Below, piece by piece: positions 42,219 to 62,785 of a stretch of DNA of 64,000 bases (position 1 is the stretch's first letter; each line of letters begins with the position of its first letter). This DNA is from a virus (taxonomy: Duplodnaviria; Heunggongvirae; Uroviricota; Caudoviricetes): IMG/VR virus record IMGVR_UViG_3300008262_003982, one strand, 5' to 3'. The notes under the pieces are model-generated. The model worked only from the letters and a program-made list of their open reading frames with translations, was not told the DNA's origin and did no database searches. The position numbers were made by a program, and so were the translations under genes.

Positions 42219-42983
42219 ATGAAAAAGAAAAACTGGTTTGTGCCTTCGCACAACGAAATGATTGCATACAGTGCCTGTCTACATGTGATCCTGGTCTACT
42301 TTATCTTCAACAGTGAAGCATGGCAGTGGGCAATATGTCTGTTGGTCTACTATATCAAGATGGTAGTCGGAACTGTAACAGTTCATCGGCTGATCACCCA
42401 TCGTTCTTTTCAAGCACCAAAATGGTTTGAATATCTAGGAACATTGATTGCTATTCCTGGCACAACTTTACCAATGTTGTATTGGGTAGCAATACATCGA
42501 GCGCATCATAGACACTCTGACACAAAAGATGATCCGCACTCACCTGCGGTATACGGTTATCTAGCCGTGCAATTTAGACTCACACCTGCTACTCCAAAAT
42601 TAAGTTATGCTCCAGAGATTGTGAAATCCAAATTTCACATGCACATGTACTACAATCATTGGTTGTACACTATCTTGGTCGGGGTGGCAGTTTACATGAT
42701 AGATCCTTATGCAGTAGTGTATGCTTATTTGGTTCCGTCACTATTGTTGCAACATGCCAGTTCACTGACCAACTCTCTCACTCACAGTCCATCAGGATAT
42801 AGAAATTTTGACACACGTGATCAAAGTTCAAATAACCTGCTGGTAGGATATTTGACTGGTGGAGAGGGCTGGCACAACAATCATCACGCCGCTGCCGCAG
42901 ATCCACAGTTTGGCAAAAAATGGTGGGAATTTGATCCTGGATACCGCTTAATTCAATTGGTAAGAACTGACAAAGACCGTTGA
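42219..42983 (+). CDS. membrane fatty-acid (acyl-lipid/acyl-CoA delta-9-type) desaturase, paralogue 1
   Basis: Three His boxes: HRLITHRSF, HRAHHRHSD and GEGWHNNHHA. Multiple TM helices. Confidence 0.8.
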   Translation: MKKKNWFVPSHNEMIAYSACLHVILVYFIFNSEAWQWAICLLVYYIKMVVGTVTVHRLITHRSFQAPKWFEYLGTLIAIPGTTLPMLYWVAIHRAHHRHSDTKDDPHSPAVYGYLAVQFRLTPATPKLSYAPEIVKSKFHMHMYYNHWLYTILVGVAVYMIDPYAVVYAYLVPSLLLQHASSLTNSLTHSPSGYRNFDTRDQSSNNLLVGYLTGGEGWHNNHHAAAADPQFGKKWWEFDPGYRLIQLVRTDKDR

Positions 42984-43008
42984 CAAACACTTAGCATTTT
43001 TGTATAAT
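42980..43008 (+). promoter_or_regulatory. promoter TTGACA-N17-TATAAT
   Basis: Sequence motif upstream of 43038. Confidence 0.5.
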
Positions 43009-43037
43009 AATTCTATACAAAATAGAAAGGGTATGCT

Positions 43038-43418
43038 ATGGAATTTCTTCCAGTATTAGAACTAATTGATCGACTCTGCATTGCCAGAGTAAAACATGCA
43101 CGAACCAAAGGCGCCAACCAAGTTGAACTTGATTGGTACGAGGACAAGTTTCGACAACTACCACAAAGCGCAGAACTAGATGAGGACATTCAAGCAATGA
43201 CCGACATCCATCATGCTATCTGGGATCTAGAATGGCAGCTCAAATCAGGCGTGGAGCAAATGTTGAGCCTTCAGGAGATTGGTCGCCGAGCCATTGCCAT
43301 TAGAGATCATAACAACAAACGTATTGCTTACAAAAATTCTGTTGCCAGCATTTTAGGGCATCCTGTAAAAGAAATCAAACATGACCACCTGGCCGACGGA
43401 ACAGTTGACACTAAATAG
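43038..43418 (+). CDS. hypothetical protein
   Basis: 126 aa ORF with an AAAGGG SD. Confidence 0.45.
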   Translation: MEFLPVLELIDRLCIARVKHARTKGANQVELDWYEDKFRQLPQSAELDEDIQAMTDIHHAIWDLEWQLKSGVEQMLSLQEIGRRAIAIRDHNNKRIAYKNSVASILGHPVKEIKHDHLADGTVDTK

Positions 43419-43441
43419 TTTTCCTGCTACAATGTAGCACA

Positions 43442-43513
43442 GGGCCAATAGCTTAATGGTAAAGCAACCGACTCATAATCGGTCGAGTCTTGGTTCAATT
43501 CCAAGTTGGCCCA
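43442..43513 (+). tRNA. tRNA-Met (anticodon CAT)
   Basis: Acceptor GGGCCAA/TTGGCCC, anticodon loop cuCAUaa, T-loop TTCAATT, CCA encoded. Confidence 0.8.
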
Positions 43514-43521
43514 CCAAACAT

Positions 43522-43593
43522 CTGGCGTTCGTTCAACGGATAGGACATGATTCTTCTAAAGTCATTATAGAGGTTCGATTCCTCTACGCCGGA
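43522..43593 (+). tRNA. tRNA-Arg (TCT)
   Basis: Acceptor CTGGCGT/ACGCCGG, anticodon loop cuUCUaa, T-arm AGAGGTTCGATTCCTCT. Confidence 0.75.
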
Positions 43594-43614
43594 CCATGTA
43601 TTAAATAACGCAAA

Positions 43615-43697
43615 GCCAGAGTGGTGGAATGGTATACACAGCAGACTTAAAATCTGCCGCTTGCAAGGGCATACGGGTTCGAGTCCCGTCTCTGGTA
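43615..43697 (+). tRNA. tRNA-Leu (TAA), type II
   Basis: Acceptor GCCAGAG/CTCTGGT, anticodon loop cuUAAaa, long variable arm, T-arm ACGGGTTCGAGTCCCGT. Confidence 0.8.
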
Positions 43698-43706
43698 CCA
43701 AACATT

Positions 43707-44240
43707 ATGAACAAAAGTCCTACTCGCGGAACCTTTCACAGTCAATGCAGAATTGAAGATGTCATTGCGGAAGGAGGAGATCCTGCCACTGACGAAGATG
43801 TTCAACGAGCTTTAGATCTTGAACGCATGATCAACGAACATCAGGCTCAACGCGAAGCCGACGAACGGTGGCGAGAAAACAATCTTGAATATGATTTGCG
43901 TAGCACCAAGTGGGTTTGCGACAAAGCCAAGGCCAGCGATACCTACGCTCAAAACATCTACGCAGCCTTGTGCAATCAAGACTGGCAACGCAACGAAGTA
44001 TGGCCTTTGCTAAAGGGAGAGACCTACAGTTGTTCGTGGCGCTATGCCGGGGGTATTGTTGCCGACATGCGTGAACAAGGTGACTATATTGATTGGTACT
44101 GTTCGGGCATAGGCGATGGACTGGGCAATGGTGATGCTGACGGTGTTAAAAGATATGTACCCGAAGGACATGTCACAGAAGAAATCCAGGAAGACTTTTT
44201 TAAGTTGGGCTGGATCCCAGTAGATAGCGGGGATGAATAA
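43707..44240 (+). CDS. hypothetical protein
   Basis: The listed ORF starts inside tRNA-Leu. The first ATG after the tRNA is at 43707. 177 aa. Confidence 0.45.
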   Translation: MNKSPTRGTFHSQCRIEDVIAEGGDPATDEDVQRALDLERMINEHQAQREADERWRENNLEYDLRSTKWVCDKAKASDTYAQNIYAALCNQDWQRNEVWPLLKGETYSCSWRYAGGIVADMREQGDYIDWYCSGIGDGLGNGDADGVKRYVPEGHVTEEIQEDFFKLGWIPVDSGDE

Positions 44241-44390
44241 ATAGGTATGTGCTCAATCCCATAAAAAAACTACAAGAAAATCTAGCCCGAGACTTGGTCA
44301 GTCTGGAGGACACAGACTTGGTGTCGGAACAACAACTAGACAAAATTACTGATGCATACGCACAAGTGTATGACATCATCTCCAAAGCAG

Positions 44391-44419
44391 TTGACAAGCC
44401 CAAAGAATAAATATATACT
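44391..44419 (+). promoter_or_regulatory. promoter TTGACA-N17-TATACT driving tmRNA precursor
   Basis: Sequence motif immediately upstream of the acceptor piece. Confidence 0.5.
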
Positions 44420-44455
44420 GCGAGTTATTGCTGTATGAAGCCGAGAGAAAAGTGT

Positions 44456-44490
44456 TCTGGACGGGGGTGCGAATCCCCCCAGGTCCACCA
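44456..44490 (+). ncRNA. ssrA: tmRNA acceptor piece 3' end (T-arm plus 3' acceptor strand plus CCA)
   Basis: T-stem GGGGG/CCCCC with loop TGCGAAT. CAGGTCC pairs with GGGCCTG at 44706, with one G·U. Discriminator A and an encoded CCA. Confidence 0.7.
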
Positions 44491-44705
44491 TAAGGAAGTT
44501 TAATGATAGGTTATGTTTTATTTTTGTTATTTTGGTTAGTGTTTGGTGTATTTTATTTTACACGTGATACCACATTGGACGAAGAGAAAATAAAAAACTG
44601 TGAGTTATGGTAATATGGAAAATTTAGCAAAATTTTTATTAATTGTTTTTCCAATATTATGCTTGTTGTTAACAACATTAAGCGTAGATTAAGTTTCTTT
44701 ATGAT

Positions 44706-44866
44706 GGGCCTGACCTAGATTCGACAGGGCAAAGAGTAACAGAGTGGACAGCACGGTAGGCGATGACCGTAAATCAAGCAAAACTTTTATCTGCAAATGA
44801 TGAAAAATTCTTGATGGCCGCTTAAGGTCGTCTAGGGTAGGAAATACCTCGTAACAGAAACCACCA
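44706..44866 (+). ncRNA. ssrA: tmRNA coding piece (5' acceptor strand, D-like GAUUCGAC, tag ORF)
   Basis: GGGCCUGACCUAGAUUCGACAGGG matches the tmRNA 5' consensus GGGGCUGAUUCUGGAUUCGACGGG. Tag frame GCA AAT GAT GAA AAA TTC TTG ATG GCC GCT TAA gives ANDEKFLMAA. Confidence 0.7.
44793..44825 (+). other. tmRNA tag-peptide reading frame (A)NDEKFLMAA-stop
   Basis: Resume codon GCA. The ...AA-stop ending is typical of SsrA degradation tags. Confidence 0.65.
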
Positions 44867-44894
44867 AAATGGCTGCGAAAGTAGCCATTTTCTT
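44867..44894 (+). terminator. rho-independent terminator
   Basis: AAAATGGCT-GCGAAAGT-AGCCATTTT hairpin followed by TTTCTTT. Confidence 0.6.
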
Positions 44895-44921
44895 TGACAT
44901 TCTCAGTGTTTGTGCTATATA
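44893..44921 (+). promoter_or_regulatory. promoter TTGACA-N17-(T)ATATAAT for porin gene
   Basis: Sequence motif. Confidence 0.5.
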
Positions 44922-44971
44922 ATACTCTATGATCGACATTTGATCATTTCATTAACAAGGAAAAATTACTT

Positions 44972-45862
44972 ATGAAGAAAGTTCTAATTGCGTTGACCCT
45001 GGCAGTTGCTGGTGTTGCAAGCGCACAAGTTGGTATCTATGGTCGTGTTGGCACTTACCTTGACAACACCAAAACTGGTGCTTCCACCGTGCAAGGCATG
45101 GCCAATGACTTGAGTCACTTTGGCATTCGTGCTACTGAAAACTTAGGTGGCGGATTAACAGCTCGTGCCACATACGAGACCGGCATCCAAGCCAACAGCC
45201 CAGACACTGGTACTGACACTAGACTTGGCGATCGCCAAAGCACCGTGGGTATTGCTCACAAAATGGGTAGCGTTGATCTTGGTCGCAATGTTCACACTCA
45301 CTTCTTGGCCATCAGCGACAATGATCCATTTGGCACATTGATTGGTAGCTCAGCTGCCGACGTGCATAACCTGCGTGGTTTGCGTTTGAGCAATGCCGCT
45401 TTCACTTCTGTGAACTTTGGCAATGTCTCTGCTAACTTTGATCGTAGCACTGGTGCTGTTGGCACTGCCGCTGATCCTTATGCCGCATCCGTGATTGCCG
45501 CAGTTGGACCTGCTGTGTTGACTTATGCTCGTTACGAAGCTGGCGCAGAAACCAGTGACGTGTTGGCTGCTCGTGCTAAATTTGGTGCAACCACTGTGTT
45601 TGCCAGCGCAAGCGACAACAAAGGCGTTGCTGCCAACACCAACCGTGCTCAGTTGGTCGGCGTGGCACACAAACTTGGTGGACCAGTCACAGTGAAGGCC
45701 AGCTATGGTCGCATTGAAAATGGCATCAAGAGTTACAACGTAGGTGCTGAGTATGCTTTCAGCAAAAAGACCTATGCACAAGTTTTGTATCGTACAGTTG
45801 AGGGAACCTCAGCAGCCACTGATGTCAAACAAGTAGCAGGCGGGTTGGTCGTACAGTTCTAA
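44972..45862 (+). CDS. outer-membrane general porin (Gram-negative Porin_4-like beta-barrel)
   Basis: Signal peptide MKKVLIALTLAVAGVASA. AQVGIYGRVGTYLDN...ATENLGGGL matches the N-terminal strands of Neisseria/Burkholderia-type porins. C-terminal ...VVQF (terminal Phe). Confidence 0.7.
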   Translation: MKKVLIALTLAVAGVASAQVGIYGRVGTYLDNTKTGASTVQGMANDLSHFGIRATENLGGGLTARATYETGIQANSPDTGTDTRLGDRQSTVGIAHKMGSVDLGRNVHTHFLAISDNDPFGTLIGSSAADVHNLRGLRLSNAAFTSVNFGNVSANFDRSTGAVGTAADPYAASVIAAVGPAVLTYARYEAGAETSDVLAARAKFGATTVFASASDNKGVAANTNRAQLVGVAHKLGGPVTVKASYGRIENGIKSYNVGAEYAFSKKTYAQVLYRTVEGTSAATDVKQVAGGLVVQF

Positions 45863-45884
45863 AACAGAAGTAGTACAAACCAAA

Positions 45885-45913
45885 AAACCCGCCAAGTAGG
45901 CGGGTTTTTTTAT
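45885..45913 (+). terminator. rho-independent terminator
   Basis: AAACCCGCC-AAGTA-GGCGGGTTTTTTT. Confidence 0.8.
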
Positions 45914-45928
45914 GGCAGTAGACCAATA

Positions 45929-46070
45929 ATTGGATTGGTGCTATACTAGACACAAGTTAGAAAAACAGCGAAGTTTGTAAAGACCCTGCAACAAGGCGGG
46001 GCATTTACAAAACAAGTTGACCAGTAAAGCAGGAGATGCTATACTAGAGACTAGTTAGAAAACAAAGGCA
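45929..46070 (+). promoter_or_regulatory. tandem repeated promoter-like elements (...GGTGCTATACTAGACACAAGTTAGAAAAACA / TTGACC-N17-GATGCTATACTAGAGACTAGTTAGAAAACA)
   Basis: Two copies of about 30 nt starting GCTATACTAGA. Each is followed by a strong hairpin (46001..46038 and 46106..46140). Confidence 0.4.
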
Positions 46071-46380
46071 GTTGATCGAAACTACTTTGAAGTTCGTTAA
46101 AAATTTAATTTTGTATAGTGCCCCAGATTAAGTTCTGGGCACTATATGTAAACACATTAGGGTTACCTAGTCCGTTAGGGGTGAACAAAGGCTGATTCGA
46201 GCCGGATACCCATGAAGCAGGAGGGCCTAAGAGTAGCGCGAGACACCATCGAGCGTGAGGGATAAGGCTACACCAAACTCCAGGAAGGCGGCGGAACTAC
46301 TGGGCCTGTAATGAGGTCTTGATGCAAGTTGGTGATGCGTGTCAAGAACTTCCCTAATGTGTTTTCATATAGTGAACTAT

Positions 46381-46452
46381 GGAGCGTTCGTCTATCGGTT
46401 AGGACACAAGCCTTTCACGCCTGTAAGAGGGGTTCGATTCCCCTACGCTCTA
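46381..46452 (+). tRNA. tRNA-Glu (TTC)
   Basis: Acceptor GGAGCGT/ACGCTCT, anticodon loop cuUUCac (one mismatch in the anticodon stem), T-arm AGGGGTTCGATTCCCCT, CCA encoded. Confidence 0.6.
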
Positions 46453-46658
46453 CCAAATCCCGTTACTACTTTCGTTAAAGTAGCGTTTGATTAGCGATAG
46501 AGATCCGGTGGCAGAAGACCGTAAGCGTAAGGATGGAGACTACCCTTACAGACTCTGATAGGCAGAATCTCACTGCACACAGACTTTGAATAAATGAGAT
46601 GGACAGAGTAACTGCTCAATTAAGGGCTGGCGTGGAACCCAGTAGCTTATCCTAATTT

Positions 46659-46730
46659 GGTCTCAAGGTGTTCATGGACGCACACAGCACTGTCACTGCT
46701 GAGGAGGGGGATCGTTACCCCCTGGGACCG
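46659..46730 (+). tRNA. tRNA-Asp (GTC)
   Basis: Acceptor GGTCTCA/TGGGACC, anticodon stem CAGCA/TGCTG with loop cuGUCac. T-loop is the unusual ATCGTTA. CCA encoded. Confidence 0.6.
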
Positions 46731-46740
46731 CCAAGTTTAT

Positions 46741-46828
46741 GGACATGATGTGTCAATTACCTGAGGCTGGTATGAAACTTCGTAATAGCATACGAGGAAG
46801 AAGTGGGTTAGATTCCCATTGTTGTCCA
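46741..46828 (+). ncRNA. tRNA-like element (T-arm plus 3' acceptor plus CCA recognisable; non-canonical body)
   Basis: 3' end GTGGGTTAGATTCCCATTGTTGTCCACCA followed by the same AAGTTTATGG tail as tRNA-Asp. The 5' strand GGACATG pairs only 5 of 7. Confidence 0.3.
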
Positions 46829-46839
46829 CCAAGTTTATG

Positions 46840-46928
46840 GCGTCATAGGATGTAACGGAGTGTGGTTTGCTTCAACCTTGAATGATCATCAAGGTTTTCT
46901 TGCGTGGGTTCGAATCCCACATGATGCC
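46840..46928 (+). ncRNA. tRNA-like element (89 nt; acceptor GCGTCAT/ATGATGC and T-arm GTGGGTTCGAATCCCAC present; body contains 23-nt perfect palindrome)
   Basis: AACCTTGAATGATCATCAAGGTT palindrome at 46866..46888 where the anticodon arm should be. No clean D-arm. Confidence 0.3.
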
Positions 46929-47532
46929 TCAAGTTTGAAGCCACATCGCCTGGACACTTCCTCGCAAGAGCACTAGGTCCTGCAACCGTGGCTTCTCCCC
47001 GACGTTCCGCTTGGTTAGCGGATACTGTGACCCGCAGGATAAGAAGTGAGGTGACTCTCAAGGGTGGTAGTCTTCTTACCGAAAGGCCGTTAGCAACACG
47101 ATAGCGGTCCCTGTCGGGAAGCGGGTGGAAGGTGTGTGAGAATTGCGGGGCAACCCAAGAGATGATGCACTACAATTACCGCCGGGGGATGCAGAGCAAC
47201 TAATTTTCCTGATGCTGGGCAGGACAAGGCCCAGCAGTCCTATCCCAAGGATCACCTGAGCCAGAACTCAGGGCCGATGAGCATCGCAAGCCCTACCACG
47301 GGTGCCGATGGACGATAAATTGGGAAGCAGTAGTTAGCAGTGGGAGGATTTGATTTTCAAATCCGAACTTTTAGTTTTTATAGTCAAGCACCGATAAAGG
47401 TATCGTGTAAGGACGCTTACGCTATTCGGGTCCAACCGGCCGGGAACGGATCCTAATATAACTGCTATCGGCTATTGCACTCTTAGCGGAGGACGCATAA
47501 ATTGAGCATCTCTCGGTGCTTGACTATAGAAT

Positions 47533-48504
47533 CTATTCAATGTCAATTTGGCAAAAACTGTTTTTGCCGCCAAATCCAAAATTGGCCTTGAGTATGCGTT
47601 TGCCCGGAAACGGCACAGCATCTACGATGATCCTTGAATCTTTGACTATGAGATCACCAGCTAACACATTGGGTCTTAGGGTTTTTGCACGGTAATCGTC
47701 AAAACTCATGCACATTTCAATGGCGCCGCTGGCTGAGATACAGTGCCCTATGCGGCTTTTGTAGCTGACAATAGGTATGTCTTTGTGAACTAAAGAATTA
47801 AAAACATTGTACTCAAATTGATCTCCCACTGGAGTGCCTGTTGCATGTGCATTCCAAAAATCAATGGTGTCAAAATTGATGCCAGAAATATCTCTGGCCA
47901 ATTGGTGCGCATCACCTGGATTGGCTATGAGTGTGGGGTTGGTACGAAAGATATAATTGCTGATTGTGGCAAATGCACTCATGTTGAATTTTACACTTGG
48001 ATGTTTTATCAACATTGCAGCCATGCCTCTACCCATTCGAAATCCAGTACTGGTTGAGTCAAATGCTCTTCCTGAGGATTGATCCAATGCACCCATACTG
48101 GCAAATCGCCACATGTGAAGTTCGTCATCAACTAAATTATCAGCACAAAAAACAATCACTGGTAATTGGTGTTGCAAGCTCACCATGGATGCAGTGTACA
48201 AGGCATGCATGCTTCCACTGCATTCTGCTACCACATTCGTAACAAATCCGTTGAGATGCAATTTTGTTGCCACAAGACTGACCAAGGCGTCAATGGTACT
48301 GTTCCTAAGTTCAGTAGGACGTCCTCGTTTTTTATTGAGCTCAAAAAAGTCTCGGCTGGGTTTATTTGTTGGTATCAATCCTCCTTTGGAAGAAGTTACC
48401 ATTGGCCAGTGTGGCTGAACAATGTTTGCTAGACATGTGCTATCAACGAATTGTTCAATGTTCCAGTCGAGACTGTGGTGATAGGTTAAGATTTCAGTGA
48501 TCAT
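47533..48504 (-). CDS. beta-ketoacyl-(ACP) synthase-like condensing enzyme (KAS; thiolase fold)
   Basis: FWNAHATGTPVGD (the HGTGT-type His motif), C-terminal NFGFGGKNS (the GFGG motif), and a candidate active-site Cys in AECSGS. 323 aa, shorter than FabF. Confidence 0.65.
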   Translation of the reverse strand: MITEILTYHHSLDWNIEQFVDSTCLANIVQPHWPMVTSSKGGLIPTNKPSRDFFELNKKRGRPTELRNSTIDALVSLVATKLHLNGFVTNVVAECSGSMHALYTASMVSLQHQLPVIVFCADNLVDDELHMWRFASMGALDQSSGRAFDSTSTGFRMGRGMAAMLIKHPSVKFNMSAFATISNYIFRTNPTLIANPGDAHQLARDISGINFDTIDFWNAHATGTPVGDQFEYNVFNSLVHKDIPIVSYKSRIGHCISASGAIEMCMSFDDYRAKTLRPNVLAGDLIVKDSRIIVDAVPFPGKRILKANFGFGGKNSFCQIDIE

Positions 48505-48595
48505 GTGGGGTACTTATTTGCCCACTGTAACACGACTGCAGAAAACTGTTACAGACTATTTTGGATAGATAAACAACAAATTTATCCAAAACTGT

Positions 48596-48624
48596 TTGAC
48601 AACAAAAGACGTTTGTCTTACAAT
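48596..48624 (+). promoter_or_regulatory. promoter TTGACA-N17-TACAAT
   Basis: Sequence motif. Transcribes into the ORF-poor GC-rich region. Confidence 0.5.
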
Positions 48625-48625
48625 A

Positions 48626-49620
48626 GATACATAGGGCAGTTTATTGTCCTGTGCAGTATGGTTCGCCCAGCTGTACGAAGAATAACTGGGGTGACCCAGC
48701 CAAAGGATGTATGCCTACATAAGTCCGCCAGCAATGGTTCATGTAAACAAGCCTGCTCAGGTCCGTGAGGATCCGATCACTGATAAGACCGGTGGTTGTA
48801 ACAATGACGCTGGGAGTATAGGAAAGAGCTGTAACTTACCGGCCCGCAAGGGTAACCGGAGTTGCAGAAAAGTAACAGGTGGTGCTGACTTCTATACAAA
48901 ACCAGCCCAGTTAATTGGTATGAGAAAGGGTAGCGTATCGGTCCGAGGGGTTGCACCCAAGGGCTCGTATGCAGTTTGAGTGGTTGGTGGAGGTACGCGA
49001 AAGCCGAGACCCGACACTGATCGCAAAAGACGTCTGAGTAGTTCGCAAGACAAAAGGAACGTGGTGTGTTGTATTTTGTATTCCAAAAGAGTATGAAGCA
49101 ACTGAGTCAGCACATCGCAGTAGGTTGATATAGCTCATCGTAGAGCAATTCCCTGTTAAGGAATAGGCTGTGGCTTCAAAACCACTATCTAACATAAAAG
49201 CAAAGACTGACTCGGTCATGTGTGAAAAGTATCTAATGCTGTAGCCGCAAGGCAATACAGTCAGACGTAACTCGCAAGGTGAAATCTGTTTATACTGGAA
49301 GTTTCGTAACTGTTTAGCGACAGTGAATGGCTCTAAAGGTCAACGGGATAGATGGTGTAGAGTAGCATGTGATGACAAGACTACTGCCTGTCTTTAAAAA
49401 CGGCGATACTGGTAACAGACTGTGATACATAGCAATATGGTTGCAGTGGAAATCGGAAGAAAGCAGACTCGCAAGGTTTGTAATAATGTCCGAGGTGTTA
49501 CTGGGTTAGGATGTATTCTCAGTCCGCCACTTTATATACAAACGCACTCCGTACCCGTTGGTGGTTGCTCAATTCAATGAATTGTTCCCCAAGCATAGAG
49601 TGTGTTTCTATATAAATAAT
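48626..49620 (+). ncRNA. candidate large structured ncRNA (about 1 kb, GNRA tetraloop-rich)
   Basis: Sits downstream of the promoter at 48596. No credible ORF. Repeated cGCAAg/cGAAAg hairpins: CCCGCAAGGG, GCGAAAGC, GCCGCAAGGC and CTCGCAAGG, the last occurring twice. Confidence 0.4.
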
Positions 49621-49624
49621 TCAA

Positions 49625-49696
49625 TCGCGGGGTACGTCAGCGGTAGACCACCAGGCTCATAACCTGGGAGACGGAGGTTCGATTCCTTCCCCCGCA
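49625..49696 (+). tRNA. tRNA-fMet (initiator-like, CAT)
   Basis: C1·A72 mismatch (CGCGGGG/CCCCGCA), which is typical of bacterial initiators. Anticodon arm CCAGG-cuCAUaa-CCTGG. CCA encoded. Confidence 0.7.
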
Positions 49697-49735
49697 ACCA
49701 ATTCAGCCGAAAGGCTAAATAACTTTAACACAGTG

Positions 49736-49764
49736 GTTGACCTCAAAAGGTAAATACTGTACAA
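49736..49764 (+). promoter_or_regulatory. promoter TTGACC-N17-TACAAT
   Basis: Sequence motif. Confidence 0.5.
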
Positions 49765-49765
49765 T

Positions 49766-49946
49766 AGGACTTATGATGAAAACACAATATTGTTCACTGC
49801 TACCCAAGTTTGCCCAGACACCAGTTTGGTCACACGCCTATGGTCGCATGAATAGCATTCCAGGAGGCAGAGGGTCCTAAGTAGTATACAACCGTATCTT
49901 ACCCAAGGACCCAGGCGTAAAAACCCTGGGTTTTTTCATTTAGTGC
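49766..49946 (+). ncRNA. candidate small RNA (promoter-to-terminator unit, about 180 nt)
   Basis: Bounded by the promoter at 49736 and the terminator hairpin CCCAGG-CGTAAAAA-CCCTGGGTTTTTT at 49918..49946. Could alternatively encode a 35-aa peptide starting MMKTQYCS... Confidence 0.4.
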
Positions 49947-50118
49947 AACGGCAACGCGAGCCTGTATCACTCTAAACTACAAATGGGCGGCCTCGGGGAT
50001 GGCTTATGTTCTTGTACATAAAAAAATCCGAGCGTATTAAAACATTCTTTACAAACAGGCAGCCTAAGTAGTTTAGAATGTTTTAATACACACATTCGCA
50101 AGAGTGTGTTAAAATTAT

Positions 50119-50189
50119 GTCTCGGTGGTGTAATGGCAGCATGACGGTCTCCAAAACCGTTCGTGGGGGTTCGAGTCCCTCCCGGGATG
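50119..50189 (+). tRNA. tRNA-Trp (CCA)
   Basis: Anticodon arm ACGGT-cuCCAaa-ACCGT, T-arm GGGGGTTCGAGTCCCTC, acceptor GTCTCGG/CCGGGAT. Confidence 0.75.
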
Positions 50190-50198
50190 CCAAAATTT

Positions 50199-50270
50199 GG
50201 GCTGGTAGTGATAATGGGAGCACAGGGGCTTTGCAAGCCTTTAGTCGGGGTTCGATCCCCCGCCGGTCCA
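50199..50270 (+). tRNA. tRNA-Ala (TGC)
   Basis: Acceptor GGGCTGG/CCGGTCC, anticodon loop uuUGCaa, T-arm CGGGGTTCGATCCCCG. Confidence 0.75.
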
Positions 50271-50278
50271 CCAAATAT

Positions 50279-50368
50279 GGAGCAATTGATGCTATGGCGT
50301 GTGCATCGGCGGACTGTAAATCCGTCCCCTCGTGGTAAACATTCTTGGTTCGACTCCAAGTTGCTCCA
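50279..50368 (+). tRNA. tRNA-Tyr (GTA), type II
   Basis: Acceptor GGAGCAA/TTGCTCC, anticodon loop cuGUAaa, long variable arm, T-arm CTTGGTTCGACTCCAAG. Confidence 0.8.
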
Positions 50369-50411
50369 CCATATTTTTGTAGTAGGCTCGAGTGCCTACT
50401 AAGTAGATTAT

Positions 50412-50484
50412 TCCCTAGTAGCACAGCGGTAGTTGCACTTGACTGTTAATCAAGGTGTCCGTGGTTCGATCCCACGCTGGGGAG
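50412..50484 (+). tRNA. tRNA-Asn (GTT)
   Basis: Anticodon arm CTTGA-cuGUUaa-TCAAG, T-arm CGTGGTTCGATCCCACG. Confidence 0.8.
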
Positions 50485-54666: not shown

Positions 54667-54685
54667 ATACAAAAAGGAGATTATT

Positions 54686-54985
54686 ATGGCTATAGTTGCT
54701 AAAACTGTGTTGGTGTATGCGTCTGTAGAAGATCGAGAAACAGCAAGAACTATTATCCCTTGGAGTAATTATTTACAAATTGTTGGAGACGGTGGGCATG
54801 ATGACTTTACTGTGGTTGGTACCGCAGGTCTCGACCCGTCAGAACTAGGTCCCACCCATTTAACTGTAACTCGAAAATGGGAAAACAAAAAAAATGCAGA
54901 AGACTTTGTTGAATGGATGACTGCACAACTTTCAACTTTTAGTGTTGTTCCTGTGTCATTTACTGTAGAAGATTATACAGAATAA
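54686..54985 (+). CDS. hypothetical protein
   Basis: ATG after an AAGGAG SD. 99 aa. Confidence 0.45.
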   Translation: MAIVAKTVLVYASVEDRETARTIIPWSNYLQIVGDGGHDDFTVVGTAGLDPSELGPTHLTVTRKWENKKNAEDFVEWMTAQLSTFSVVPVSFTVEDYTE

Positions 54986-55016
54986 CGCATGATCAGATTG
55001 TCTGACACAAGTTATA

Positions 55017-55050
55017 AAAACAGTAGGCCAGTCCTACTGTTTTTTTTTTT
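55017..55050 (+). terminator. rho-independent terminator
   Basis: ACAGTAGG-CCAGT-CCTACTGT followed by eleven T residues. Confidence 0.75.
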
Positions 55051-55056
55051 GCAAAT

Positions 55057-55130
55057 GCCCCGGTGACGGAACTGGAATACGTGTCTCTCTCAAAAGGAGA
55101 ATTCTGAGGGTTCGAATCCCTCCTGGGGTA
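55057..55130 (+). tRNA. tRNA with Leu anticodon CAA, type-I body (paralogue of 53778)
   Basis: The first 27 nt are almost identical to 53778. Anticodon arm TCTCT-cuCAAaa-GGAGA, discriminator A. Confidence 0.6.
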
Positions 55131-55156
55131 CCACTATCAATAAATATTTTTGAAAG

Positions 55157-55633
55157 TTGAAAATGAAAAAGCTCGATATAGCATCAGTAGCAGAATTTAT
55201 CCAGAAACAAACGCCCGAAACTCGCATCTACCTTGGCTGCGACTCTGAACGAATCAAAATTGACGGTACCTGGTATGCCGACTATGTGTTGGCCATTGTG
55301 GTACACATCAACGGCAACAACGGCTGCAAACTGTTTGGCGAAGTTCAACGCGAGCGTGTGTGGGACGTGAAACCAGGCAAACCTGCCATGCGTTTGATGA
55401 CCGAAGTGTACAAGGTTTCAGAACTGTATTTGAAACTGGCTGACGTACTAGAAGGCCGTCAAGTTGAAGTTCACTTGGACATCAACCCAGACGAACAATA
55501 CGGTTCAAGTTGTGTGATCTCGCAAGCTGTGGGCTACATCAAAGGAACATGCAATGTGATTCCGTTTGTGAAGCCAGAAGCATTTGCAGCATCATACGCG
55601 GCAGATAGATTTAAGAGTTTACGAGCTGCCTAA
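55157..55633 (+). CDS. hypothetical protein
   Basis: 158 aa ORF. Confidence 0.45.
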   Translation: MKMKKLDIASVAEFIQKQTPETRIYLGCDSERIKIDGTWYADYVLAIVVHINGNNGCKLFGEVQRERVWDVKPGKPAMRLMTEVYKVSELYLKLADVLEGRQVEVHLDINPDEQYGSSCVISQAVGYIKGTCNVIPFVKPEAFAASYAADRFKSLRAA

Positions 55634-55646
55634 TAAGTAACGGAAT

Positions 55647-55717
55647 GCAGGATTAGTTTAGGGGTAAAATAGAACCTTGCCAAGGTCCAGTCACCAGTTC
55701 GATTCTGGTATCCTGCT
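55647..55717 (+). tRNA. tRNA-Gly (GCC)
   Basis: Acceptor GCAGGAT/ATCCTGC, loop uuGCCaa, T-arm ACCAGTTCGATTCTGGT. Confidence 0.65.
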
Positions 55718-55724
55718 CCACTTA

Positions 55725-55795
55725 GCTCTCATAGTATAAAGGCATTACACTACATTGGTAATGTAGAAACACTGGATCGTTACCAGTTGGGAGCA
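55725..55795 (+). tRNA. tRNA-Thr (GGT)
   Basis: Anticodon arm CTACA-uuGGUaa-TGTAG. T-loop is the unusual ATCGTTA. Confidence 0.65.
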
Positions 55796-55803
55796 CCAAT
55801 TCT

Positions 55804-55875
55804 CGGCCCTTGGTGAAATGGATATCATGCTTGTCTTCGAAACAAGCGGTGGGAGTTCGATCCTCTCAGGGCCGG
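55804..55875 (+). tRNA. tRNA-Arg (TCG)
   Basis: Acceptor CGGCCCT/AGGGCCG, anticodon arm CTTGT-cuUCGaa-ACAAG. Confidence 0.75.
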
Positions 55876-55924
55876 CCAATAAAAAACCTCAAACTCCGTC
55901 ATAGAAAAATACAATAGCAAAATG

Positions 55925-55980: not shown

Positions 55981-56418
55981 ATGACACAATCTGTAAAAGG
56001 TACCCGTACCGAAGAAAACTTGAAGGCGGCATTTGCCGGAGAATCGCAAGCCAATCGTCGATACTTGTATTTCGCAAACATGGCCGACGTAGCAGGCGAC
56101 AATGACGTTGCTGCCTTGTTCCGTTCAACTGCCGAAGGCGAAACTGGACATGCACACGGTCATATGGAATACTTGATCGAAGGTGGTGCTGGAGATCCCG
56201 CCACTGGCATGAGTGCCAAATCTGTTGAGCAGGCTCTGGAAAGTGCTATTCATGGCGAAACACATGAATACACTGACATGTATCCTGGCATGGCCAAAAC
56301 TGCCAGAGACGAAGGCTTAGACGAGATTGCTGACTGGTTTGAAACACTGGCCAAAGCCGAACGCTCACATGCCAATCGTTTCACCAAAGCCCTGGCTGCT
56401 CACAAAGAAGCACAATAA
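55981..56418 (+). CDS. rubrerythrin ferritin-like di-iron domain protein
   Basis: N-terminal [23 protein letters not shown] is the rubrerythrin signature. ExxH pairs are present ([13 protein letters not shown]). Confidence 0.7.
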
Positions 56419-56557: not shown

Positions 56558-56558
56558 C

Positions 56559-57340: not shown

Positions 57341-57752
57341 AGAAGACGGAGATAGAAGAAACAGTCTGCCTTACCCAATGGAGTTGGGCAGTCCTGCGTT
57401 TGCCCCTGTTCCTGTTGAACGAGAAAAAGATGTCATACTCAATGTAGGGCGAATGCATGCTCAACAAGAATATGACAGGATCATGCAACAAGTTGAAGTG
57501 TTAAAACAACAGGCCGACGCACTTCAACAACGCCTGCATGTTAGTGAGATCATGCACGGCGTCAAGTACGGCTTACAACCTCGACATGGTAAAACTTACT
57601 ATGTGTATTTTAACTCAATAAAAAACGAGCATTGGTTGAGTATGAATCATCCGCATCACTGGTGCGCTGGCCCTGGAGAACAGCACACCTACGTGATGGC
57701 AGTTAAAATGCTCGGCGACTCGACCTGGCAAGAAGTGCAATTAGACACATGA
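57327..57752 (+). CDS. hypothetical protein
   Basis: 141 aa ORF. Confidence 0.4.
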   Translation: MDLSKEDGDRRNSLPYPMELGSPAFAPVPVEREKDVILNVGRMHAQQEYDRIMQQVEVLKQQADALQQRLHVSEIMHGVKYGLQPRHGKTYYVYFNSIKNEHWLSMNHPHHWCAGPGEQHTYVMAVKMLGDSTWQEVQLDT

Positions 57753-58618
57753 AAATACAACTACACGAAAATGGTTGGACTTCAATCATTACTGATATTG
57801 ATTTACGTTCTGCTTCACAGCAAGAGATGAATACCATTGCTTGGCTTGCTGCCAAAGACACCGTGGTTGTGATACGCGATCAACACCTTTTGCCCGGAGA
57901 CGAAGTTGACATCTGTGAAAAAATTGGTGCATGTGAGCAAGTGGCGCCGGCTAATACGCCAACACCGGGCACAAAATTAGTACAAGGCGGGCGTGGTAAA
58001 ATTGTCAGAGTAGGTGGCGGTGGTCACCATCATGGACAACCAGGTGTGTTTGAACATGTGAGTGATCTAGATTGGCACTGCAATAGAACCGGTAGTGAAG
58101 ACCGAGATCCGTTGATTTGGTTGTATTCAGTAAAAGATTCTGTTGGCAGCCGAACCAGTTGGATCAACAACATTTTGAGTTATCAAGATCTTGACCAAGA
58201 ACTCAAAGAACAAATCAAAGATTTAAAACTGGTCATGGGGTTTGATGCTAGGGTGATCTCTGAAGACACTTACACAATCACCAGTCGAGATTCAAATGCC
58301 ATCAACCACAATTGGTATCCAAGTTTGTTACACACCAACCAGGCTGGTGTCACAGGCATGTTTTTTTCGTTTTTACAAATTCATCAGATACTGGGTTTTG
58401 ACAAAGACAAAAGCGATGCCCTAATTCAAAAATTACGACAACATGTGGAGCAAGAAAAATACACATATCACCACGATTGGCAAGACGGTGACATTGTGTT
58501 AAGTGAACAATGGTTAAGTATTCACAAAAGATGGCGCTGTGAAAACATTCAGAATCGAGTGGTGCATCGCATTGCTCTTAACTTTGATCACTGCAACATT
58601 TCTAATACTTTAGTGTGA
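57749..58618 (+). CDS. TauD/TfdA-family Fe(II)/2-oxoglutarate dioxygenase-like, paralogue 1
   Basis: DWHCNRTG compares with TauD WHTD. The C-terminal HHDWQDGDIVLSEQWLSIHKR compares with TauD RxxWxxGDlvxWDNRxxxHRA. Confidence 0.5.
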   Translation: MKIQLHENGWTSIITDIDLRSASQQEMNTIAWLAAKDTVVVIRDQHLLPGDEVDICEKIGACEQVAPANTPTPGTKLVQGGRGKIVRVGGGGHHHGQPGVFEHVSDLDWHCNRTGSEDRDPLIWLYSVKDSVGSRTSWINNILSYQDLDQELKEQIKDLKLVMGFDARVISEDTYTITSRDSNAINHNWYPSLLHTNQAGVTGMFFSFLQIHQILGFDKDKSDALIQKLRQHVEQEKYTYHHDWQDGDIVLSEQWLSIHKRWRCENIQNRVVHRIALNFDHCNISNTLV

Positions 58619-59658: not shown

Positions 59659-60570
59659 ATGAAATTAACTTTAGATCCAAACGGCTGGGTAGTGCATGTA
59701 GATCAACTAAACGTGCTAGATGTAAACAGCACCGAACGCGATCAATTAAGAACGCTACCTTATACCAACTTGCTGGTTGTAATCCATAACACGCAACCGT
59801 TAACCATTGATCAATATCATCAATTTACTTCTGGTGTGTTTGATGATCTCAATAACGATCTTCCAGCCAAAGAAAAAATATTTGTCGAACAAACCAACAA
59901 AGAAATTATCAGAGTCACTGGTAAGAAAGATGTCCACGGTGAAATCACTGGATTATTTGGCATGCCAGATGATTTGCCTTGGCACTGCAACGAACCAGGA
60001 AGAACTGCCGCAGAACGTCCCGATGCTTTGTGTTTGTACGGGGTAGAACATACTGAAGGCAGCATCACAGGATTTACCAACAGCATACAAGCATTAAACG
60101 ATCTTAGGCAAGCAACCGATACACCAGTTGGACTATTAAGAAGTCTGGATCAGCTCATGTGTTATTACAATTACTCAGGCAGTACAGATAACGGGCCTAT
60201 GGCTGCAGACGTTAACTATCAAGGCAGAACAGGATTTAACAAATTTGTTACTCAAAACAAATCAGGGGCCACGGGCATCCATTGGTCACCCATGCAAAAT
60301 CCAATATTCTATATTGGCAAAACACCAGTTCCAAACGCTGGACAACAAGCATGGTTCAGTTATCTGTACAAATTTCTAACTCAGCCCAAGTACCAGTACG
60401 CTCATCATTGGCAAGACTATGAAATAATTATCAATTGCCAGTGGTTGAGCATGCATGCTCGTCCTGCATTTGAAAATATTGAAAACCGTCTGTTGTGGAG
60501 AGCCATGGGCTATGTTAGCCCATTTGATGGGTCAGCGATTGATACTGGCCAGCTTGAATTGCGCCAGTAG
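59659..60570 (+). CDS. TauD/TfdA-family dioxygenase-like, paralogue 2
   Basis: Paralogue of 57749..58618: PWHCNEPG and the C-terminal YAHHWQDYEIIINCQWLSMHAR. Confidence 0.5.
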   Translation: MKLTLDPNGWVVHVDQLNVLDVNSTERDQLRTLPYTNLLVVIHNTQPLTIDQYHQFTSGVFDDLNNDLPAKEKIFVEQTNKEIIRVTGKKDVHGEITGLFGMPDDLPWHCNEPGRTAAERPDALCLYGVEHTEGSITGFTNSIQALNDLRQATDTPVGLLRSLDQLMCYYNYSGSTDNGPMAADVNYQGRTGFNKFVTQNKSGATGIHWSPMQNPIFYIGKTPVPNAGQQAWFSYLYKFLTQPKYQYAHHWQDYEIIINCQWLSMHARPAFENIENRLLWRAMGYVSPFDGSAIDTGQLELRQ

Positions 60571-61314
60571 TTCAATTATTCTGGCAGGTGGGTCAATTTC
60601 ATACCAGCGTTGACTGAATCTATAGTTGGCTGCATTTTGATGATGGTTCTTGTGCCAAGCTTCGCCATTGTTGATGTTTAATAACACCATCAGCACACTG
60701 TTACTGCTGGTGTCATCATTGTGTATAGGTAGCAAGAACCAAGGTGTGCGATGACACAATGAATTGATTGTGTGAAGTTTGAACACTGTGAGTCCAATTA
60801 CTGCTATCCATAATCCTACCAGGGCAGGATCAATTGCAAATAACAATGCAAACCAAACTATGTTGAGGGCCCAGTACCAATGATAAAACCAAAGATGGCG
60901 AGAATCTCTACCAAGGTCCACAATGTATTTGGTTTTGACTTGATTGAAATAGCTCAAAAATTGAATAGCCCACCGACTCTTATGATATGGAGAATGTGGA
61001 TCACGGTCAGTGTCACAATGTGCATGATGTTCGCGATGAATTCCCACCCATCCAATGCTGTTGCCTACTAGGCACAAGGTAAATACAACAAGTCCATACA
61101 AATCAACTACTGAACTAGGTTTCCAGGCGCGATGACACCAGGCGCGATGCGCAAACATAGTGATGTGAATTCCCATAAACCAACTGGTCAATAGCACAAC
61201 AAAAAATGTAGTCCATGACCAGTTTATTGTCAACCAGATCACTGTCCAAATTGGAAATAACATGCCAACGGAACTGAGTGCCACTGGGTCGATCAAGGAG
61301 CGAGAGATTTTCAT
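60532..61314 (-). CDS. membrane fatty-acid desaturase, paralogue 2
   Basis: His boxes HRAWCHRAW, HREHHAHCDTDRDPHSP and EAWHKNHHQ. Confidence 0.75.
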   Translation of the reverse strand: MKISRSLIDPVALSSVGMLFPIWTVIWLTINWSWTTFFVVLLTSWFMGIHITMFAHRAWCHRAWKPSSVVDLYGLVVFTLCLVGNSIGWVGIHREHHAHCDTDRDPHSPYHKSRWAIQFLSYFNQVKTKYIVDLGRDSRHLWFYHWYWALNIVWFALLFAIDPALVGLWIAVIGLTVFKLHTINSLCHRTPWFLLPIHNDDTSSNSVLMVLLNINNGEAWHKNHHQNAANYRFSQRWYEIDPPARIIELLAQFKLASINR

Positions 61315-61355
61315 ATGAAATATTTATTTGCTCGCACACTAACTTAAATAATCGC

Positions 61356-62057
61356 ATGCACAAACCAATTGTTTTTTTAGGCACCAGTACAAACTTAGAA
61401 ATTTTTATAAGAGTGTGTACTCTTCGTAACATACCCGTTGCAGGTATTGTTGACAGTGATTATTACAGGAACACTGATACTAAAAATGGATTGCCTGTGA
61501 TTGGAAGCGAAGACTCGTTTGATTTTGAGGCTGCTCGAGACCAGTATGATTTTTTTGTTGGAATGTCTTGGTCAAGTCTTGATCTAAGATCGAAATCCAA
61601 AAGACTTGCGTATATTGATCTGATTGATCAACATAAACTCAACTGTGCAACGCTGATACATCCAGCCAGTGAGGTGTATGACGAAGCAGAAATTGGCCCA
61701 GGGTGCTATATTGGATTCAACGCCGGAGTAGCACATTATACAAAGATTGGTGCTCACAGCCGAATACATAATTCTACTACTGTTGCGCATCATACCACTA
61801 TTGGAAAAAATTGCATCCTACATGAATTTGTAAAAATTTGTAGTAGAGTAACATTAGGTGACAATGTGTTAATTCACCCTGACACTGCAATTGTAGGGTA
61901 CGGCAAATTTAACAATGAGCGCGGACCAAATATTGGTAGTAATGCTGAACTACATCCTCGAATCACTGTTACTAGAGATGTAGAACCGGGAGAGATTGTT
62001 TCTTTGGCTGGTGGCAACAACACTAGAAGAATCTATGGCGAGGTAGTAAGATCATGA
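61356..62057 (+). CDS. NeuD/PglD-family hexapeptide-repeat sugar O-/N-acetyltransferase
   Basis: The N-terminal Rossmann-like IVFLGTSTN...GIVDSD followed by left-handed beta-helix repeats, for example IGKNCILHEFVKICSRVTLGDNVLI. Confidence 0.6.
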   Translation: MHKPIVFLGTSTNLEIFIRVCTLRNIPVAGIVDSDYYRNTDTKNGLPVIGSEDSFDFEAARDQYDFFVGMSWSSLDLRSKSKRLAYIDLIDQHKLNCATLIHPASEVYDEAEIGPGCYIGFNAGVAHYTKIGAHSRIHNSTTVAHHTTIGKNCILHEFVKICSRVTLGDNVLIHPDTAIVGYGKFNNERGPNIGSNAELHPRITVTRDVEPGEIVSLAGGNNTRRIYGEVVRS

Positions 62058-62785
62058 AACGCATAAACTGGTTGTTTGTTTTTCAAACCATGTGCATAGC
62101 TGCCTTGGTGTGCCTAATGGTGAATGGTGAATGGTGGCAATGGGCCGTAGCGTTTGGCGTATACGTTGTAACTGGCAGTATTGGTGCCAGTGCAACTTTT
62201 CACAGACTATTGAGTCATAGAAGTTATAAAGCACCTGCTTGGTGGGAATACCTTGGCACCATAATTGGCACTCTCGGTGGAGTGGGCTCTAGTATTGCTT
62301 GGGTTGCCATACATCGTGAACATCATAAATTTGTGGATACCGAACGCGATCCCCACAGTCCCTTGCACAAAGGATTCTTCCGTGTGCAATTTTTAATCAT
62401 GTTCAATCAGCCCAGTCTTAGAATGGTTACTGATCTCATGCGCAGTAGATTTCATGCATTCATGCACAATTACTATTGGGCCATACACGGTGCGTATGCT
62501 GTGATACTGTATGCTATAGATCCAATGGCTGTGGTCTATGCTCACTTGGTGCCTGCTTTGTTTTTATTCCATGCAGGCGGTTTGATCAACAACATTGGTC
62601 ACACCATAGGCTGGCAAGATTATCCTGGCAAAGATACCAGTGTTAACAATCCTATTTTAGGTGTACTTGTGTGGGGCGAAGGATGGCACAACAATCATCA
62701 TGCCAATCCCAGTGACTGGCGCTTTGGACTAAAGTGGTGGCAAATTGATGTTGCTGGATATTTAATTAGACTGGTCAAACAATGA
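62054..62785 (+). CDS. membrane fatty-acid desaturase, paralogue 3
   Basis: His boxes HRLLSHRSY, HREHHKFVDTERDPHSP and GEGWHNNHHANP. Confidence 0.8.
   Translation: MKRINWLFVFQTMCIAALVCLMVNGEWWQWAVAFGVYVVTGSIGASATFHRLLSHRSYKAPAWWEYLGTIIGTLGGVGSSIAWVAIHREHHKFVDTERDPHSPLHKGFFRVQFLIMFNQPSLRMVTDLMRSRFHAFMHNYYWAIHGAYAVILYAIDPMAVVYAHLVPALFLFHAGGLINNIGHTIGWQDYPGKDTSVNNPILGVLVWGEGWHNNHHANPSDWRFGLKWWQIDVAGYLIRLVKQ

Follow-up and report, generated by a model that had tools for sequence, protein, structure and literature searches.

Viral fatty acid desaturases (vFADs) have been described in several phages. In yeast, the cyanomyophage enzymes vFAD-I and vFAD-II acted as Δ9 desaturases on C16 chains (Roitman et al. 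2018, PMC5776448). In Arctic cryopeg brine, two viruses were reported with five copies of vFAD each, and the clades of these copies had no microbial members (Zhong et al. 2020, PMC7300359). Single vFADs were also found in Nitrospirota phages (PMC7678222), and in the published model viral desaturases serve membrane fluidity (PMC5776448, PMC7300359, PMC7678222). We analyzed a viral DNA stretch of 64,000 nucleotides (IMG/VR record IMGVR_UViG_3300008262_003982), called the window here in its full length, which encodes three desaturases (Des1, Des2, and Des3) and a compact β-ketoacyl synthase (KAS). Des3 lies in an operon between a left-handed β-helix (LβH) acyltransferase and an AspH-like 2-oxoglutarate (2OG) oxygenase, and the pairing of desaturase and oxygenase appeared to be virus-specific and nearly obligatory. 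Phage desaturases, including multi-copy sets, are already known (PMC5776448, PMC7300359), and the original prediction, which was made from the letters of the window alone, had correctly named them for cyanophages (PMC5776448). As far as the literature was searched, the desaturase-hydroxylase module, the LβH-desaturase-oxygenase operon, and the compact KAS family were undescribed, and the papers on viral desaturases mentioned no AspH-like partner.

Des1-3 shared with the described vFADs the character of phage-borne SCD/DesC-class desaturases with three His boxes. Multi-copy sets and virus-only clades were shared with the cryopeg vFADs, with 2-7 copies per locus in our data. However, the cyanophage vFADs are single genes near host DesC clades, whereas the window proteins were at most 39% identical to any cellular sequence found. 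The closest cellular relatives, searched with one genome per species, were 31-39% identical and came from Cyanobacteria, Acidobacteriota, Planctomycetota, and others. Des1, the sole paralogue used for tblastn against GenBank phages, matched only Pelagibacter phage Mosig and one Acinetobacter phage. Mosig EXVC030M (MT647606) is a cultured T4-like phage, and it also has an Asp_Arg_Hydrox gene beside an FA_desaturase gene, with TauD, methylase, N-acetyltransferase, and radical SAM (S-adenosylmethionine) genes. Its cluster reads AspH, desaturase, aminotransferase, FMN reductase, TauD, methylase, N-acetyltransferase, and AspH, beside tail-fibre genes. However, it has one desaturase and no KAS, and its identity to the window proteins was 32% (desaturase) and 25% (oxygenase).

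The enzymes were also compared with cellular relatives. In the case of SCD1 (4YMK, 4ZYO) and cyanobacterial DesC, the order of the nine His ligands and one Asn ligand was shared with Des1-3, with a profile match at E 1e-30, and hydropathy peaks suggested a similar helix placement. However, SCD1 has 318-339 aa, while Des1-3 have 243-260 aa with both termini trimmed and no fused or adjacent cytochrome b5 or ferredoxin. FabF and FabB share with the compact KAS the Cys-His-His triad, the conserved Lys, the C-terminal GFGG motif, and the thiolase fold, but they have about 410 aa compared to 323 aa. LpxO and OlsC are bacterial PF05118 members that act as lipid acyl 2-hydroxylases. They and human AspH share with the window oxygenase the PF05118 match, the HxD...H motif with an Arg, and the double-stranded β-helix (DSBH) core. 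However, LpxO is membrane-anchored, whereas the window oxygenase has no transmembrane anchor.

Desaturase Family Assignment

The original prediction had reported three desaturase open reading frames (ORFs) and one for a ketoacyl synthase. All four were confirmed (Table 1), as were the three His boxes of each desaturase. The motifs of Des1 were HRLITH (56-61), HRAHH (93-97), NSLTH (185-189), and HNNHH (219-223). Des2 showed HRAWCH, HREHH, NSLCH, and HKNHH, and Des3 showed HRLLSH, HREHH, NNIGH, and HNNHH. HxxxxH, HxxHH, and H(N/K)NHH thus occurred in that order in all three proteins. The additional NxxxH motif between boxes 2 and 3, which the original prediction had not listed, aligned to NSAAH of SCD1 (Asn265 and His269 of mouse SCD1). 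This meant that the SCD1 set of nine His and one Asn ligands was complete, and the ligand string HHHHHNHHHH was found in full in the aligned Des1, Des2, and Des3. The residues H50, H55, H87, H90, H91, N179, H183, H212, H215, and H216 were invariant in a 19-member family alignment.

Searches gave the same picture. Mouse SCD1 (4ymk) was aligned to Des1 by phmmer at 5.9e-11, with all boxes on known ligands. The family profile matched 4ymk (1.2e-30) and 4zyo (2.8e-29) in the PDB, with no other real match at E ≤ 10. Pfam FA_desaturase missed Des2. The sole NCBIfam match of the desaturases was DesA_fam_desat, below its equivalog cut-off of 400. In a crude Kyte-Doolittle scan, hydropathy peaks flanked the boxes at the places where the SCD topology has its four transmembrane helices, two of them ahead of box 1 and two from box 2 to NxxxH. 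A grouping with β-carotene ketolases, hydroxylases, or alkane hydroxylases, named as the counter-case in the original prediction, was not found. No AlkB chain was retrieved from the PDB at E ≤ 10 with the family profile or with Des2, no AlkB, CrtW, or CrtZ model was reached in NCBIfam at E ≤ 0.01, and Pfam FA_hydroxylase (CrtZ type) gave no match. These results ruled out an identity as alkane hydroxylase AlkB, carotenoid ketolase CrtW, or hydroxylase CrtZ. By motif and profile, Des1-3 are assigned to the desaturase family, in the SCD/DesC (Δ9) class.

The paralogues were clearly diverged, as originally described, with pairwise identities of 44% (Des1/Des3), 38% (Des2/Des3), and 31% (Des1/Des2). 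Neofunctionalization is common in the desaturase superfamily. The fold might therefore serve another chemistry, such as that of a hydroxylase, a UndB-like 1-alkene-forming decarboxylase, or an acetylenase, or some copies might be inactive. This would fit the low identity among the paralogues and the incomplete ligand set that the alignment showed for 29 of the 131 viral homologues from the sampled loci. However, every SCD1 ligand was kept in Des1-3, the profile and NCBIfam matches were confined to SCD1 and the DesA model, and the cyanophage relatives were Δ9 desaturases in yeast (PMC5776448). We consider a change of chemistry or a loss of activity highly improbable.

Des3 was under strong purifying selection, with dN/dS of 0.05-0.06 against its orthologues in two IMG/VR loci (L008 and L009). 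Its protein identity to these loci was 90-91%, while the flanking Des2, LβH transferase, and oxygenase reached only 58-66% (66% for the Des2 orthologue in L009). This mosaic conservation would reflect either a recent exchange of Des3 or a far stronger constraint on it.

Des3 Operon and Pairing with an Oxygenase

Des3 is the middle gene of three. Its start overlaps the stop of the LβH gene by 4 nt (62054-62057), and its stop overlaps the start of the oxygenase gene by 4 nt (62782-62785). A terminator-like hairpin closes the operon. As far as gene arrangement can tell, the three genes were shown to be transcribed together, with Des3 coupled to both partners in translation. The LβH-Des3-oxygenase triad recurred in a 697-kb contig and in nine IMG/VR loci (L002 and L008-L016 in all).

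The probable ATG of the LβH gene, read from the sequence, is at 61356, and the mechanical ORF begins at a GTG at 61278. Against TIGR03570 (NeuD_NnaD), the LβH protein scored 92.9 bits (cut-off 160.8) with both domains aligned (model 3-170 of 202), including the NeuD/PglD-like N-terminal domain. Its best PDB sequence matches were LpxD and LpxA, in the LβH part only. The oxygenase matched PF05118 with 33.4 bits (cut-off 22.6) over its catalytic half, and H163, D165, H214, and R224 (HxD...H plus Arg) were invariant in its family. The AlphaFold2 (AF2) model (pLDDT 91.4) had a DSBH core, and AspH was among the structural matches. The N-terminal 130 residues had no solved counterpart (TMq ≤ 0.47). 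The maximum 19-aa hydropathy was 0.75, which indicated no transmembrane segment. This oxygenase family was retrieved from metagenomic and viral contigs only.

Pairing was then counted on both sides. The IMG/VR scan gave 129 Des3 relatives, from which 80 viral loci were kept for counts. An oxygenase gene was located within 10 kb of the desaturase in 44 of the 80 and directly adjacent in 24. When the oxygenase was used as the seed, a desaturase was present in 59 of 62 viral loci and adjacent in 37. In 80 cellular desaturase loci, by comparison, no oxygenase, LβH transferase, TauD, or radical SAM gene was nearby (0/80). The desaturase-oxygenase pairing appeared to be virus-specific and nearly obligatory. 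Together with the coupling of Des3, it argues for multi-step acyl tailoring rather than stand-alone fluidity genes.

Another explanation, in line with the remodelling of membrane fluidity suggested in the original prediction, would be that of the published vFAD model (PMC5776448, PMC7300359, PMC7678222). Each desaturase would act alone on acyl chains of bulk phospholipid to raise membrane fluidity, in response to cold or stress or in the timing of lysis, the KAS would boost fatty acid supply, and the neighbors would be unrelated cargo. A single desaturase was found in 49 of the 80 viral loci, no oxygenase was found in the flanks of 36, and Des1 is not beside an oxygenase, all of which are consistent with this explanation. 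However, it does not account for an AspH-like gene that accompanies a desaturase in 59 of 62 loci, often adjacent and overlapping. It also leaves unexplained why phages keep up to seven diverged copies, and the repeated presence of KAS and TauD genes in these neighborhoods. We regard fluidity on its own as rather unlikely.

Copy Number and Origin of the Paralogues

At least two desaturase ORFs were present in 31 of the 80 viral loci (2-7 copies, some with a KAS). Three loci had four desaturases, one had five, and one had seven. A second desaturase was found in only 1 of the 80 cellular loci. The window had been described as an unusually large lipid gene set for a phage. This did not hold, given these counts and the five copies per virus reported from cryopeg brine (PMC7300359).

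In an unbootstrapped neighbor-joining tree of 215 sequences, the 81 cellular proteins formed one pure clade, and Des1-3 were placed in a 94-leaf virus-only clade. This placement favors diversification within viruses, as far as the sequences can tell, over three separate host captures.

Radical SAM genes were present in 24 of the 80 desaturase-bearing viral loci. One viral island was in L075 (1-14409 of IMGVR_UViG_3300023179_000086), with six to seven desaturases, a full-length KAS, Rieske, cupin, possible GNAT, and radical SAM genes; L058 and L059 are comparable.

Compact Ketoacyl Synthase

The FabF/FabB-like enzyme of the original prediction was upheld, in a shortened form. The KAS is about 90 aa shorter than FabF (323 compared to about 410 aa). 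Against TIGR03150 (fabF) it gave 7e-25 and 87.5 bits (cut-off 493.75), aligned from model position 101. It was outside the full-length architecture (400-430 aa) and below every curated NCBIfam cut-off. The alignment to FabF began near FabF residue 102-113, and the first approximately 60 residues of the KAS were family-specific. About 50 homologue clusters were found at E ≤ 2.5e-69 with 39-93% identity, and all had about 320 aa except a few truncated entries. This shared length indicated that the KAS is not a fragment. In an alignment of 22 sequences, which included two distant relatives (30-32% identity, 314 and 319 aa), C95, H220, K249, and H254 were invariant and aligned to the FabF/KS motifs ACS, HGTGT, and KSxxGH. 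The AF2 model was confident (pLDDT 92.7, pTM 0.91). Foldseek matched it to FabF, FabB, and the KS domains of polyketide and fatty acid synthases at E of about 1e-17, with TMq of 0.77-0.79 and TMt of about 0.6, and it superposed on them over its whole length, which indicated a thiolase fold. Because of the intact Cys-His-His-Lys set, the common length of the homologues, and the confident model, we regard the KAS as a minimized but, by prediction, catalytically complete FabF/FabB-type condensing enzyme.

The compact family was found only in viral and metagenomic contigs. KAS matches in GenBank records labeled as phage were ordinary, host-like FabF/FabB-type proteins with 23-31% identity, mostly in unannotated records, and were rejected as members. 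Of the 10 viral loci with a compact KAS, 6 had a desaturase at a distance of up to 10 kb, and no phage acyl carrier protein (ACP) was detected in the KAS loci. In L176, the order was desaturase, oxygenase, DUF932, KAS, and desaturase, and the stop of the KAS gene overlapped the start of the second desaturase gene. Full-length KAS genes abutted the desaturase arrays of L058, L059, and L075, with Rieske, cupin, and radical SAM genes, and were followed by two TauD genes in six other viral loci (L179-L183 and L187). In L180 (4394-11959 of IMGVR_UViG_3300025120_008179), the run was DegT aminotransferase, an unknown gene, GT8, an unknown gene, a 68-aa ORF, a short-chain dehydrogenase/reductase (SDR), full-length KAS, TauD, and TauD. 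L179, L181-L183, and L187 were similar. From its gene content, this operon resembles a cassette for the biosynthesis of an acylated amino sugar or a lipid.

Such loci also raise the explanation of a dedicated pathway for a specialized lipid or acylated sugar. The KAS would build a chain on host ACP, the LβH enzyme would transfer the acyl group to an amino sugar or amine, and the desaturases, TauD, and AspH-like enzymes would tailor it. The product could be a modified lipid A or aminolipid, a surface sugar with an N-acyl group, or a small effector lipid by which the cell surface is altered or competitors are affected. KAS, desaturases, TauD pairs, AspH-like, LβH, and radical SAM genes do recur in shuffled order in viral contigs, and the L180 operon, the L075 island, and the Mosig cluster bring several of them together. 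The GalE, DegT fragment, sulfotransferase, and FkbM methyltransferase genes of the window and the NeuD/PglD-like domain of the LβH protein point the same way. However, the pieces come from different contigs, and in the window the KAS and the sugar genes are 12-45 kb from the operon. SCD-class enzymes are known to act on long-chain acyl-CoA or acyl-lipid and are not known to act on sugar-linked acyl groups. In addition, no ACP, acyl-activating enzyme, thioesterase, or glycolipid transferase was found in the window with approximate query sequences, which is a weak negative. We consider a dedicated pathway of this kind unlikely.

Proposed Function

Our preferred reading, to which we give an even chance, is that the window carries an O2-dependent set for tailoring acyl chains, by desaturation and hydroxylation, on host envelope lipids. 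The desaturases would reside in the host inner membrane during infection. They would use O2 and a host reductant of the ferredoxin or flavodoxin type, or possibly the phage rubredoxin. Their substrates would be host envelope lipids with long acyl chains, or the acyl-ACP/CoA precursors of these lipids, in which cis double bonds would be formed. Each paralogue would have its own specificity for the position of the double bond, the chain length, or the carrier. The same acyl chains would be hydroxylated by the partner oxygenase, by analogy with LpxO and OlsC, and the KAS would use host malonyl-ACP to provide or lengthen acyl chains. The envelope would in the end be chemically altered, with unsaturated and hydroxylated acyl chains, and not merely more fluid. 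Of the three paralogues, a plain membrane role may suit Des1 best. It comes after the SPFH/Band 7 gene, and a porin gene lies 2 kb downstream, which gives this part of the window a membrane theme.

Several points weigh against acyl tailoring. Everything beyond the enzyme family was read from gene context. The LβH protein scored best as a NeuD/PglD-type sugar N-acetyltransferase, and it therefore fits sugar chemistry better than lipid chemistry. The solved folds closest to the oxygenase were small-molecule and protein hydroxylases with TMq ≤ 0.47, so that the structure does not indicate a lipid substrate. An identity of the oxygenase as LpxO was rejected (NF033391, 15.5 bits compared to a cut-off of 500; no membrane anchor). 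The KAS is 12 kb from the Des3 operon, on the other strand and among tRNA genes. With approximate query sequences, a weak negative, no ACP, ferredoxin, or flavodoxin was matched in the window. The IMG/VR loci contain near-duplicates, and the counts therefore overstate independence. The tree had no bootstrap and covered sampled loci only, and Des2 was about equidistant from Des3 and the nearest cellular sequence.

A wider version of acyl tailoring is possible but doubtful. The compact KAS, neofunctionalized desaturases, obligate AspH-like partner, LβH, TauD, and radical SAM enzymes would then form a virus-specific modular pathway that makes or rewrites an envelope lipid or an acylated surface sugar, for example with hydroxy-unsaturated chains on lipid A, an aminolipid, or an amino sugar. 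It would alter the cell surface, in superinfection exclusion, receptor masking, or lysis control, instead of fluidity.

Viral desaturases have been read as simple fluidity genes, and our results suggested that this reading is incomplete. They also suggested that lipid chemistry of several steps is carried out in the host by some large phages, with products nobody has sought. The window offers a cloneable three-gene operon and two uncharacterized families, the 323-aa minimal KAS and the soluble PF05118 oxygenase of about 245 aa. If only extra monoenes result, the window would simply add one more case to a class of auxiliary genes that is already known.

Viral Origin and Host

The window is viral and not host DNA, and its source is a large uncultured phage. 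It contains a T4-type DNA polymerase gene (phrog_262, E 4e-193) and 28 tRNA genes at 43442-55878 that represent nearly all amino acids. Host contamination or misassembly was rejected because tRNAs, a transfer-messenger RNA (tmRNA), and a GOLLD RNA are interleaved with the genes, orthologous loci of the region are present in IMG/VR, and no cellular homologue exceeded 39% identity. The exact Des1 protein occurred on many metagenomic contigs, including four contig blocks of 0.2-1 Mb, and Des3 relatives were found on contigs of 466 kb and 697 kb with phage-like gene content. Megablast of the 21.6-kb region against GenBank phages gave only a tRNA match and no close relative. In the case of the porin, all 154 tblastn matches in a plasmid collection were Burkholderiales records. 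This was a hint that the host is probably a Gram-negative betaproteobacterium. The porin gene itself is a possible surface-remodeling gene.

Other Genes and RNAs in the Window

The remaining features are listed with the main genes in Table 1.

Table 1. Positions of the genes and RNA elements of the window and the matches that identified them
Feature	Position	Strand	Evidence and remarks
Sulfotransferase-like gene	8170-9009		
FkbM methyltransferase	11615-12592		
GalE	15724-16686		Above NCBIfam cut-off
DegT aminotransferase fragment, short	16661-17257		
GTP cyclohydrolase I	18984-19676		
YhhQ/Vut_1 queuosine-precursor transporter	22799-23419		
Asparagine-synthase-like glutamine amidotransferase	34543-36084	-	TIGR01536 137.7 bits, below cut-off; among unknown genes
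SPFH/Band 7 membrane-scaffold protein	40968-41762	+	Pfam Band_7, E 7e-18
Des1, SCD/DesC-class membrane di-iron acyl desaturase (predicted), 254 aa	42219-42983	+	Pfam FA_desaturase, E 8.5e-18
Acidic 203-aa protein	43629-44240	+	No recognizable domain; mechanical ORF overlaps tRNA-Leu
Permuted (two-piece) tmRNA	44398-44916	+	RF04321, 115 bits; ARAGORN tag ANDEKFLMAA; inside tRNA array
Gram-negative porin	44972-45862	+	Pfam Porin_4, E 2.8e-25
Compact KAS I/II-type β-ketoacyl synthase, 323 aa	47533-48504	-	Pfam Ketoacyl-synt_C 1.3e-14; C-terminal part of ketoacyl-synt 8.6e-7
GOLLD RNA, full-length	49061-49525	+	Rfam RF02032, 204 bits (gathering score 150), E 3.5e-56
Twitch-domain radical SAM protein	50992-52116	-	NCBIfam N_Twi_rSAM 198.7 bits (cut-off 170); inside tRNA array
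SAM methyltransferase	53893-54666		Generic class I fold
Rubrerythrin	55981-56418	+	E 8.6e-26
Rubredoxin, 42 aa	56429-56557	+	Pfam Rubredoxin 33.3 bits (cut-off 23); directly after rubrerythrin
TauD/TfdA-family 2OG oxygenase 1	57749-58618	+	Pfam TauD 2.9e-24
TauD/TfdA-family 2OG oxygenase 2	59659-60570	+	Pfam TauD 5.8e-19; converges on Des2, 39-nt overlap
Des2, most diverged paralogue, 260 aa	60532-61314	-	NCBIfam DesA_fam 6.3e-18; human SCD1 4zyo 2e-7
LβH (hexapeptide) acyl/acetyl-transferase, NeuD/PglD/LpxD type	61356-62057	+	Pfam Hexapep 1.3e-17; NCBIfam NeuD_NnaD 1.9e-26
Des3, desaturase, 243 aa	62054-62785	+	Pfam FA_desaturase, E 3.9e-16; middle gene of the operon
AspH/LpxO-superfamily (PF05118) 2OG/Fe(II) oxygenase, 243 aa, soluble	62782-63513	+	Pfam Asp_Arg_Hydrox 5e-8
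Intrinsic-terminator-like hairpin with T8	63559-63587	+	9-bp stem, 5 GC pairs, then TTTTTTTT; closes operon

The SPFH/Band 7 gene starts a tight run that continues through a 98-aa and a 52-aa ORF and ends in Des1. According to the gene calls of the identical contig L001, the run up to Des1 has overlaps of 4 nt and a gap of 8 nt. Homologues of the acidic 203-aa protein adjoined desaturase genes in 15 of the 80 viral loci, often immediately upstream. Both TauD genes of the window are near Des2, on its lower-coordinate side. The rubrerythrin and rubredoxin genes form an oxidative-stress or electron-transfer pair a few kilobases before this oxygenase-rich block. Rubredoxin is a possible electron donor for the desaturases, and no ferredoxin, flavodoxin, or cytochrome b5 was matched in the window with the approximate query sequences. 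It was rejected as a conserved dedicated donor because just one other viral locus had a rubredoxin close to a desaturase. For the SAM methyltransferase, an identity as cyclopropane fatty-acid synthase was dismissed (26.8 bits compared to a cut-off of 400).

The GOLLD RNA and the KAS gene are on opposite strands, with the RNA a short distance upstream of the gene, and a tRNA-like element (49124-49194) is embedded in the RNA. The RNA could begin near 48505, and the ORF-free 48505-49060 may be its variable 5' half. Another 0.8 kb without ORFs (46740-47530) contains two T-arm-like motifs, GGGUUAGAUUCCC and GUGGGUUCGAAUCCCAC. Its predicted structure was stronger than that of shuffled sequences (z = -2.66), and Rfam gave no match at E ≤ 0.1. 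Degenerate or atypical tRNA-like genes may lie here, or a structured RNA of another kind. Far from the desaturases, the genes between 8170 and 23419 form a group for sugar and nucleotide modification, in which the YhhQ/Vut_1 transporter suggested 7-deazaguanine metabolism.

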